From: a virus
Taxonomy: Duplodnaviria > Heunggongvirae > Uroviricota > Caudoviricetes
Reading direction: 5' to 3' (one strand)
DNA length: 6,093 nucleotides
Virus record (IMG/VR): IMGVR_UViG_2695420380_000008
This document shows positions 636-2,520 of the stretch, one piece after another (within the stretch, counting starts at the first letter, position 1; every line of letters starts with the position of its first letter). Below the pieces are notes generated by a model. It was not told where the DNA came from and did not search any database. It saw only the letters and a program-made list of their open reading frames with translations. The position numbers and the translations under genes are program-made.

Positions 636-700
636 CCCGCCAGCAATCTGAGTAGCGAAAGCTGTTCATCCCCAATGTTTTTGCTGGCGGGTCCTTTTTT
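636..700 (+). terminator. terminator-like structure on the plus strand: 11-bp inverted repeat plus T6
   Basis: cccgccagcaa (636-646) is the exact reverse complement of ttgctggcggg (681-691), followed on the plus strand by tcctttttt (T-run 695-700). The 34-nt loop is atypically long. A second GC hairpin cctccccggagggggg (711-726) followed by U-rich sequence lies just downstream. Confidence 0.3.
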
Positions 701-857
701 CTACGGTCCTCCTCCCCGGAGGGGGGCATTTCATTATTTTTCTAATCGTTACTGGTGAGAAGGCGGAAGAAAAAGCCAGTTCTTCGCCCCTAAATAACAG
801 CATGATTCCAGTCCATGCAAAATCTGATTTCCAGCTCACACATACCGAGCGCTGTAC

Positions 858-879
858 AAAAAACCGCCAGCCAAGGCAG
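858..879 (-). terminator. weak terminator-like hairpin plus U6 on the minus strand, about 260 nt 3' of tRNA-Gly; the identical sequence recurs at 1816-1837
   Basis: Minus-strand RNA cugcc-uuggcu-ggcgg-uuuuuu: 5-bp stem including one G-U pair, followed by six U (complement of A858-A863). Confidence 0.25.
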
Positions 880-1139
880 TTAAGAGTGTGTTCCCGGGGT
901 TTGCTTAGAATATTTTGTAAGTTGTCCGAAGAGATATTTACAACACCAGAATGATGAATCATCAGTCCCCTGCCAGAGGTTCACTACGTAACCTGACCGA
1001 CAATGCACCATTCTGGTGCTGAAAAAAGAGCACTGGAACTGCAACAAAACAACATCACAGAACAGGAGATGGTAAGGAGTCAGACATTCCCACACAATAT
1101 TGTGTCAGTGCAAATAACAACCTTCGTCTCAAATCTCGC

Positions 1140-1214
1140 TGGAGCGGGCAGCGGGAATCGAACCCGCATCATCAGCTTGGAAGGCTGAGGTAATAGCCAT
1201 TATACGATGCCCGC
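1140..1214 (-). tRNA. tRNA-Gly (anticodon UCC), CCA encoded
   Basis: Reverse complement reads GCGGGCATCGTATAATGGCTATTACCTCAGCCTTCCAAGCTGATGATGCGGGTTCGATTCCCGCTGCCCGCTCCA. Anticodon stem TCAGC/GCTGA, loop CTTCCAA, T-loop TTCGATT. Matches E. coli glyT-type tRNA from memory. Confidence 0.85.
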
Positions 1215-1217
1215 ATA

Positions 1218-1293
1218 TGGTGCCGACTACCGGAATCGAACTGGTGACCTACTGATTACAAGTCAGTTGCTCTGCCTGCTGAGCTAAGTCGGC
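1218..1293 (-). tRNA. tRNA-Thr (anticodon UGU), CCA encoded
   Basis: Reverse complement reads GCCGACTTAGCTCAGCAGGCAGAGCAACTGACTTGTAATCAGTAGGTCACCAGTTCGATTCCGGTAGTCGGCACCA. 7-bp acceptor stem GCCGACT/AGTCGGC, anticodon loop CTTGTAA. One A-C mismatch in the T-stem. Confidence 0.85.
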
Positions 1294-1295
1294 GC

Positions 1296-1372
1296 TGGCC
1301 CACCACCGAGGACTCGAACCTCGCACCGTCAACTTAGAAGGTTGATGCTCTATCCGGATGAGCTAGTGGTGG
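1296..1372 (-). tRNA. tRNA-Arg (anticodon UCU; reads AGA/AGG), CCA encoded
   Basis: Reverse complement reads CCACCACTAGCTCATCCGGATAGAGCATCAACCTTCTAAGTTGACGGTGCGAGGTTCGAGTCCTCGGTGGTGGGCCA. Perfect 7-bp acceptor stem CCACCAC/GTGGTGG, anticodon stem TCAAC/GTTGA, loop CTTCTAA, T-stem CGAGG/CCTCG. Confidence 0.8.
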
Positions 1373-1373
1373 T

Positions 1374-1450
1374 TGGTGGCCCTTGCTGGACTTGAACCAG
1401 CGACCTGGCGATTATGAGTCGCTCGCTCTGACCAACTGAGCTAAAGGGCC
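1374..1450 (-). tRNA. tRNA with CAU anticodon, ileX/ileZ-like (tRNA-Ile2, lysidine-dependent AUA reader) or elongator Met; CCA encoded
   Basis: Reverse complement reads GGCCCTTTAGCTCAGTTGGTCAGAGCGAGCGACTCATAATCGCCAGGTCGCTGGTTCAAGTCCAGCAAGGGCCACCA. Acceptor stem GGCCCTT/AAGGGCC, anticodon loop CTCATAA, T-arm GCTGG-TTCAAGT-CCAGC. Closer to E. coli ileX than to metT from memory; Ile2 versus Met cannot be decided from sequence alone. Confidence 0.8.
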
Positions 1451-1549
1451 GGAGGCAGAATAATAACCATATGTCATCACATCTGCAAACTCATCTGACC
1501 ACCAGCACGTTTAACGTCCTGTGCCGTTTTTCAGGTATAAAAAAACCCG

Positions 1550-1580
1550 NNNNNNNNNNNNNNNNNNNNNNNNNNNNNNN
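1550..1580. other. run of 31 N (unresolved sequence / gap)
   Basis: Directly visible in the sequence; copy 1 of the repeat ends at its left edge. Confidence 1.
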
Positions 1581-1617
1581 CTTAAACGTCTTTCAGTCAC
1601 TCCGGGATTTCCCATCA

Positions 1618-1648
1618 NNNNNNNNNNNNNNNNNNNNNNNNNNNNNNN
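1618..1648. other. run of 31 N (unresolved sequence / gap)
   Basis: Directly visible in the sequence; copy 2 of the repeat starts at its right edge. Confidence 1.
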
Positions 1649-2097
1649 GTCCTTTTTTCTACGGTCCTCCTCCCCGGAGGGGGGCATTTCATTATTTTTC
1701 TAATCGTTACTGGTGAGAAGGCGGAAGAAAAAGCCAGTTCTTCGCCCCTAAATAACAGCATGATTCCAGTCCATGCAAAATCTGATTTCCAGCTCACACA
1801 TACCGAGCGCTGTACAAAAAACCGCCAGCCAAGGCAGTTAAGAGTGTGTTCCCGGGGTTTGCTTAGAATATTTTGTAAGTTGTCCGAAGAGATATTTACA
1901 ACACCAGAATGATGAATCATCAGTCCCCTGCCAGAGGTTCACTACGTAACCTGACCGACAATGCACCATTCTGGTGCTGAAAAAAGAGCACTGGAACTGC
2001 AACAAAACAACATCACAGAACAGGAGATGGTAAGGAGTCAGACATTCCCACACAATATTGTGTCAGTGCAAATAACAACCTTCGTCTCAAATCTCGC

Positions 2098-2172
2098 TGG
2101 AGCGGGCAGCGGGAATCGAACCCGCATCATCAGCTTGGAAGGCTGAGGTAATAGCCATTATACGATGCCCGC
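2098..2172 (-). tRNA. tRNA-Gly (UCC), second copy inside the duplicated block
   Basis: Same sequence as 1140-1214, offset by 958 bp. Confidence 0.8.
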
Positions 2173-2175
2173 ATA

Positions 2176-2251
2176 TGGTGCCGACTACCGGAATCGAACT
2201 GGTGACCTACTGATTACAAGTCAGTTGCTCTGCCTGCTGAGCTAAGTCGGC
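2176..2251 (-). tRNA. tRNA-Thr (UGU), second copy inside the duplicated block
   Basis: Same sequence as 1218-1293, offset by 958 bp. Confidence 0.8.
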
Positions 2252-2253
2252 GC

Positions 2254-2330
2254 TGGCCCACCACCGAGGACTCGAACCTCGCACCGTCAACTTAGAAGGT
2301 TGATGCTCTATCCGGATGAGCTAGTGGTGG
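2254..2330 (-). tRNA. tRNA-Arg (UCU), second copy inside the duplicated block
   Basis: Same sequence as 1296-1372, offset by 958 bp. Confidence 0.75.
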
Positions 2331-2331
2331 T

Positions 2332-2408
2332 TGGTGGCCCTTGCTGGACTTGAACCAGCGACCTGGCGATTATGAGTCGCTCGCTCTGACCAACTGAGCT
2401 AAAGGGCC
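2332..2408 (-). tRNA. CAU-anticodon tRNA (Ile2/Met-type), second copy inside the duplicated block
   Basis: Same sequence as 1374-1450, offset by 958 bp. Confidence 0.75.
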
Positions 2409-2417
2409 GGAGGCAGA

Positions 2418-2446
2418 ATAATAACCATATGTCATCACATCTGCAA
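2418..2446 (-). promoter_or_regulatory. candidate sigma70 promoter for the tRNA cluster (minus strand); the same sequence occurs at 1460-1488
   Basis: Minus-strand TTGCAG (-35, complement of 2441-2446), 17-nt spacer, TATTAT (-10, complement of 2418-2423). The -10 ends 9 nt before the mature 5' end of the first tRNA. Hexamer match only. Confidence 0.3.
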
Positions 2447-2496
2447 ACTCATCTGACCACCAGCACGTTTAACGTCCTGTGCCGTTTTTCAGGTAT

Positions 2497-2520
2497 AAAA
2501 AAACCCGCATAAAGCGGGCT
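2497..2520 (-). terminator. intrinsic terminator on the minus strand directly 3' of the putative Q gene (tR'-like position)
   Basis: Minus-strand RNA gcccgc-uuuau-gcgggu followed by UUUUUUUAU: cccgc (2504-2508) / gcggg (2514-2518) stem, then the complement of the A-run 2497-2503. The first bases of the same motif precede the N run at 1539-1549. Confidence 0.55.

Follow-up and report, generated by a model that had tools for sequence, protein, structure and literature searches.

Two adjacent copies of a prophage tRNA block on a Shigella sonnei scaffold very probably reflect misassembly

Does a lambdoid prophage of Shigella sonnei carry two adjacent sets of the same four tRNA genes? The question is raised by a stretch of 6,093 nt (IMG/VR record IMGVR_UViG_2695420380_000008; in the following "the window", always at its full length), in which a block consisting of a spacer and four tRNA genes is written twice, the two copies being separated by two runs of N with a 37-nt island between them. 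The window is the entire scaffold CXCT01000205.1 of the S. sonnei draft assembly GCA_001249045.1, and both of its ends are assembly breaks. In reverse complement, the public record CXCT01000205.1 agrees with the window at every position, including the N runs. Judging from sequence comparisons, we consider it very probable that the tandem doubling is a scaffolding or gap-filling artefact of this short-read draft. It seems best not to count the duplication as a real feature; the underlying tRNA module is of a known kind.

The original prediction held that positions 691-1549 and 1649-2507 are identical over at least 859 bp and that both inner boundaries run directly into N. Both statements were borne out: the copies match at 859 of 859 nt with 0 mismatches, copy 1 runs up to the first N run, and the second N run leads straight into copy 2. 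The first 300 nt of the block were also detected separately as a 100% direct repeat. Because both inner ends lie at N, 859 nt is the minimum length of the repeat and the junction between the copies is unsequenced. An exact repeat of this length cannot have arisen by chance. The N runs are equal in length (31 each), which suggests placeholders rather than measured gaps. Taken literally, the deposited sequence with its two tRNA sets offset by 958 nt would mean that spacer and tRNA block have truly been duplicated in tandem in the prophage of the isolate, with a junction that failed to assemble and a doubled dosage of the four tRNAs. Recombination among similar prophages or insertion sequence (IS) elements in Shigella could in principle duplicate such a segment, and IS-mediated rearrangements are seen at this locus.

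We compared the window with 5,426 complete Escherichia coli genomes as well as with IMG/VR, metagenome and viral collections; loci fetched from these carry L numbers. Among the complete genomes only two records cover at least 80% of the window. Relatives without gaps and with a colinear match of 99.3-99.7% to the window hold the block once. In FDAARGOS_944 (locus L001) window 1-1549 corresponds to L001 3001-4548, and window 1649-6093 corresponds to L001 3691-8134, the latter being colinear at 99.7%. As one stretch of 858 nt belongs to both matches, FDAARGOS_944 contains a single block and a single tRNA set. FDAARGOS_943 likewise has a single block, differing from FDAARGOS_944 by an IS1 insertion; L009 has a single block with an IS1 insertion beside it; VL40, L017 and L019 are colinear with the window and have one block and one tRNA set each. 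One tRNA-Gly gene was found in 155 of the 164 fetched loci. Only one locus (L104) contains two, which lie 9 kb apart in the contexts of two different prophage types (A and B), and two adjacent tRNA sets occur in 0 of the 164 loci. Against a genuine duplication, no adjacent tandem pair of the block was present on any N-free contig or complete genome examined. In the metagenome and viral collections, a search for the end of copy 1 followed after 16-46 nt by the start of the island gave no match either, whereas this pattern is matched by the N runs of the window itself.

The island between the two N runs provides further evidence. Of the 5,426 complete E. coli genomes, 498 contain its 37-mer, as do 116 IMG/VR stretches. 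At the fetched loci its flanks are identical in 127 of 127 occurrences, with the tRNA-Gly gene of a different lambdoid prophage located 22 nt beyond; the invariant right neighbour starts with TCGCAGACT. This context does not fit the window, in which the 37-mer is followed by 31 N and then by the sequence of position 691, and the island is therefore foreign to the block; its sequence points to an origin in another prophage type. Since the context seen in the other 127 occurrences is incompatible with either end of the block, it also speaks against a genuine duplication, the junction of which would be made up of N runs and a foreign 37-mer and not of the block's own ends. When genome contigs were scanned for the 37-mer, matches came from two complete genomes only, and the source scaffold was not among them. 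If the island were exactly the segment common to two prophages of the B type, it would form a natural node of an assembly graph; we rejected this idea, as the common segment is about 70 nt long.

The same context bears on a further explanation, according to which the N runs are masks over real bases, so that copy 1, 31 nt, the 37-mer, 31 nt and copy 2 would be truly contiguous. The exactly equal length of the two runs would agree with masking, and some stretches in the collections are indeed masked. However, the record at NCBI is itself 6,093 nt long and has the same N runs, and a 37-mer that is invariably followed by TCGCAGACT and, after 22 nt, by tRNA-Gly is irreconcilable with 31 nt leading into position 691. 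We therefore assign masking next to no probability.

In order to describe where the pieces of the window recur, we distinguish between prophages of the window's own type (A1), a type with the 37-mer on the lysis-gene side of the tRNA genes (A2), a type that diverges from the window after position 2508 (D) and a type that shares window 243-1451 (C). A2 was found at six loci (L010, L011, L012, L014, L015, L018) from five complete chromosomes of 4.8-4.9 Mb, which are IS-dense, as Shigella genomes are; all six encode the same DUF1133 protein. In 6 of 6 A2 loci the 37-mer occupies the same position: the left flank consists of the 37-mer followed by TCGCAGACTGAAAGACTCTGAC, and adjoins a module that matches window 2097-4055 and comprises the tRNA genes, the terminator, the genes for DUF1133 and YbcO and the start of the gene for DUF1367. 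Compared base by base, L010 shows 0 mismatches to the window over 2097-3579. Different types also reside in one genome. CP061367.1 holds both A2 (L015) and A1 (L016, with 4 mismatches to the window in 3,756 nt), CP104423.1 holds both D (L167) and A2 (L010), and a second prophage of the C type is present in FDAARGOS_943 and CFSAN029787. Within single related genomes, A2, C and D prophages share parts of the block at 99-100%. With multiple prophage types per genome, the module is therefore a dispersed repeat that is present in two to three copies in this genome group.

The D type, represented by L167 and L168 from complete genomes and by L149, L159 and L148 from IMG/VR, has two mismatches to window 1-1549, and the block itself is identical (100%). 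Divergence sets in immediately after window 2508: following ...AAAAAAACCCG and a C, the A type continues with ATAAAGCGGGC and the D type with TCATCGGCGGG. The right flank of the D type, read directly from the end of ...AAAAAAACCCG, is CTCATCGGCGGGTTTAAGCTGTGTGG. Copy 1 ends 1 nt before this fork and thus looks like a contig that stops where an assembly graph branches. Considering all of these observations, we regard a genuine tandem duplication as very unlikely. The same low probability applies to a more specific version, in which recombination among paralogous prophages would have produced a real tandem duplication, explaining the A2 fragment at the junction and doubling the dose of tRNAs for rare codons.

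As a separate observation, the mosaic boundary between the A and D types (2508/2509, equivalent to 1550/1551) lies inside the stem-loop of a terminator that resembles the lambdoid tR'. The left arm and the A/U run are common to both types; loop and right arm differ, and a hairpin is still formed in each.

According to the original prediction, the most economical explanation was a scaffolding or repeat-resolution artefact, as could arise for example if one genome contains near-identical lambdoid prophages. The single-copy relatives, the two to three prophages sharing the block at 99-100% and the foreign island all agree with this view. We infer the following order of assembler events as the most likely one. 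The S. sonnei genome would carry several lambdoid late regions that share the tRNA module exactly. Proceeding to the right of position 1139, the module would have two alternative left neighbours, namely the spacer (A1, D) or the flank with the 37-mer (A2). The scaffolder would have set these neighbours in series as a lysis-gene-side contig, a 37-nt A2 piece and a Q-side contig. Through extension or gap filling, the left contig would then have grown into the module and the right contig, in the opposite direction, into the spacer, with the outcome that the same 859 nt were written on both sides of two placeholder gaps. Measured from the branch point at 1138/1139, the block extends over 448 nt on the left and 411 nt on the right. 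This corresponds to about one library fragment each way and would fit extension guided by read pairs.

We further considered from which loci the two copies stem. Window 1-1549, which differs from the D type at two positions, has 11 mismatches to L001, and window 1-1005 has 8 mismatches to the A1 locus L016. The right flank of the window is clearly A1. Both copies may thus be real but dispersed, a D-type left part having been falsely joined to an A1-type right part. Alternatively, there is one intact A1 locus, and overlapping contig ends were left unmerged. The alleles of copy 1 slightly favour the dispersed D/A1 origin over a single locus. With either origin, two tRNA sets 958 nt apart are unsupported.

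The history of the assembly is consistent with such an error. A pipeline of the Sanger Institute consisting of Velvet, SSPACE and GapFiller was used for the release of 299 S. sonnei assemblies with neighbouring accession prefixes; its authors point out that SSPACE and GapFiller are greedy and liable to false joins, and the Shigella assemblies average 405 contigs (PMC5320598). CXCT01 was probably made by this pipeline, judging from the species, the accession series and the era. In addition, an assembly gap that separates two duplicates within the same scaffold is known as a sign of false duplication (PMC9516828).

Several points weigh against a scaffolding artefact of the kind outlined. The left edge of the block at 691 does not coincide with any known mosaic boundary, as the same left flank is found in 40 of 40 sampled loci, and the order of events outlined does not account for a stop of the extension at this position. 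Nor does it account for the exact gap length of 31 N or for the size of the 37-nt island. Furthermore, CXCT is absent among the S. sonnei prefixes (beginning with CWW, CWZ and CXA) in the part of the supplementary table of PMC5320598 available to us. We had also considered mosaic boundaries as the cause of both block edges: the right edge fits within 1 nt, and the left edge was rejected owing to the flank common to the 40 loci.

An independent draft, IMGVR_UViG_2671180430_000009 (L029), also has a piece of the spacer written twice, here around an IS element and with single-N gaps, followed by A2 sequence. The order in L029 is window 299-1005, IS, N, window 681-1105, N, IS600, the flank with the 37-mer, the tRNA genes and the Q-like side. 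One of its contig pieces starts at window 681, near the edge at 691. The tRNA-module locus seems to have been mis-scaffolded repeatedly. As independent support for either arrangement we gave no weight to L029 or to L155, both being short-read drafts that are possibly chimeric.

The features of the window are compiled in Table 1.

Table 1. Features of the 6,093-nt window, in window coordinates (ORF, open reading frame; PGAP, Prokaryotic Genome Annotation Pipeline)
Feature	Position	Strand	Evidence or remark
RrrD-like phage lysozyme gene, 5' part, cut by scaffold end	1-243	-	PF00959; rrrD in colinear complete genome
Class II holin gene, 71 aa	244-459	-	ORF; PF04971; WP_000284485.1 at matching position in L001
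Terminator-like hairpin with U run, just upstream of holin gene	500-526	-	-22.2 kcal/mol, z = -3.8
Copy 1 of block	691-1549		448-nt spacer (691-1138), four tRNA genes and 99 nt up to first arm of tR'-like hairpin
tRNA-Gly(TCC)	1140-1214	-	ARAGORN; Rfam tRNA; PGAP in L001
tRNA-Thr(TGT)	1218-1293	-	ARAGORN; Rfam tRNA; PGAP in L001
tRNA-Arg(TCT)	1296-1372	-	ARAGORN; Rfam tRNA; PGAP in L001
tRNA(CAT)	1374-1450	-	ARAGORN; Rfam tRNA; tRNA-Ile in PGAP annotation of complete genomes
Scaffold gap, 31 N	1550-1580		
Island, 37 nt, sequence of another prophage type (B/A2)	1581-1617	+	In B/A2 22 nt on lysis-gene side of tRNA-Gly
Scaffold gap, 31 N	1618-1648		
Copy 2 of block	1649-2507		Continuous with Q-like side
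Second written set of the same four tRNA genes	2098-2408	-	ARAGORN; Rfam
tR'-like intrinsic terminator, downstream of Q-like gene	2496-2526	-	Hairpin with U run, -18.4 kcal/mol, z = -4.2
DUF1133 gene, Q-like putative antiterminator, 184 aa	2598-3152	-	PF06576 and weak PF06530; DUF1133 in L001
Hok/Gef-family ORF (HokD in relatives)	4614-4826	-	
sok	4764-4939	-	Rfam match, 117 bits
Epoxyqueuosine reductase QueH gene	4997-5683	-	PF02677; adjoins hok/sok, prophage early-to-late region

The genes of the window are encoded on the minus strand. In plus-strand direction, they and the other features follow one another as lysozyme (partial), holin, hairpin, spacer, four tRNA genes, a strong hairpin with a U run, DUF1133, YbcO/DUF1364, DUF1367, Rem, hok/sok and QueH. 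The tRNA genes are located between the Q-type gene and the holin gene in the same orientation as the late genes, and the tR'-like minus-strand hairpin, into which the right edge of the block falls, separates them from the Q-type gene as an intrinsic terminator. Collapsing the two copies had been expected to give a coherent late region with the order Q, terminator, tRNAs, spacer, terminator, holin and endolysin. Gene calls, hairpins and the annotation of L001 are all in accordance with this arrangement.

The Rfam matches of the tRNA genes score 56-70 bits. For the tRNA gene with the anticodon CAT (1374-1450 and 2332-2408) the two annotations differ: ARAGORN calls it tRNA-Met, and the identical gene is tRNA-Ile according to PGAP. 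Presumably it encodes the lysidine-modified Ile2 that reads AUA. Together with Arg-TCT, Thr-TGT and Gly-TCC, a set including this presumed Ile2 would cover A-ending codons that are rare in the host.

An ORF of 98 aa in the spacer (666-962) has no Pfam match. The 91-aa gene called in the source record at 1649-1920 on the minus strand is the second copy of this ORF in N-truncated form and is an annotation error due to the false duplication. Further to the right, the window contains a hok/sok type I toxin-antitoxin locus (4614-4939, minus strand). With QueH encoded on the prophage, a tRNA-modification gene and tRNA genes share one prophage. The DUF1367 protein (3439-4038, minus strand) was found with its exact sequence on one contig only among about 15 billion proteins, namely CXCT01000205.1, and its record gives S. 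sonnei as the species; it has 2 UniRef entries, from S. sonnei. Its gene differs from relatives at a few positions, e.g. window 3532, 3865 and 3947. These differences may reflect variation at the strain level, or else a consensus formed from the A1 and A2 paralogues.

Outside the window, the 448-nt spacer is found at an identity of at least 99% in only 9 of the 5,426 complete E. coli genomes. In two A1 prophages (L013 and L016, from the complete chromosomes UGZB01000001.1 and CP061367.1) an IS element replaces window 1006-1379 in collapsed coordinates. The replacement removes tRNA-Gly, tRNA-Thr, tRNA-Arg and part of tRNA-Ile, so that the module is being eroded by IS elements in some lineages. 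The segment 600-840 of the window matches about 1,365 records at 80-90% identity, including 639 places on plasmids; for the plasmid matches listed the identity is about 86%. On the one plasmid inspected, that of ATCC 11775, the match lies beside iss and remnants of Rz/Rz1, a context which marks it as a remnant of a lambdoid lysis region on a virulence plasmid.

For users of the record CXCT01000205.1, these results mean that its coordinates, its tRNA counts and its 91-aa gene call are not to be trusted, and the earlier advice to treat any coordinates in the interval as provisional stands. Surveys of prophage tRNAs or of "duplications" in short-read drafts of Shigella and E. coli will collect artefacts of this kind. 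If the duplication were true, it would be a modest curiosity, namely a doubled dose of prophage tRNAs, and would involve no new mechanism.

As an assembly error, the case resembles the false duplications described for vertebrate genomes (PMC9516828): identical copies share a scaffold on which a gap separates them, relatives with better assemblies have a single copy, and the error goes back to equivalent sequence that was not merged or resolved. In contrast to the vertebrate cases, the equivalent sequence is here a multi-copy prophage module in a haploid bacterium and does not go back to heterozygosity. It also resembles the greedy scaffolding of Shigella drafts rich in IS elements and prophages (PMC5320598), for which species, accession series and era fit, whereas that description accounts for neither the 31-N gaps nor the 37-nt island.

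The module itself can be compared with the late-region tRNA clusters of lambdoid phages. The window differs from these in that the gene in the Q position encodes a DUF1133 protein with a weak Phage_antitermQ match and in that its 448-nt spacer is rare. Deposited Escherichia phages carry single sets of tRNA-Met/Thr/Gly(/Lys) and match only the tRNA part of the window, at about 93%. The overall arrangement is nevertheless shared. In Shiga toxin (Stx) phages, the ileZ-argN-argO cluster places tRNA genes of the late region between the lysis cassette on one side and the Q antiterminator and its terminator on the other. The window likewise has a Q-like gene, an intrinsic terminator, tRNA genes, a terminator, holin and lysozyme, with the tRNA genes in the same position and orientation, and, as in the lambdoid clusters, their anticodons serve rare E. 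coli codons (AUA via Ile2, AGA, ACA and GGA).

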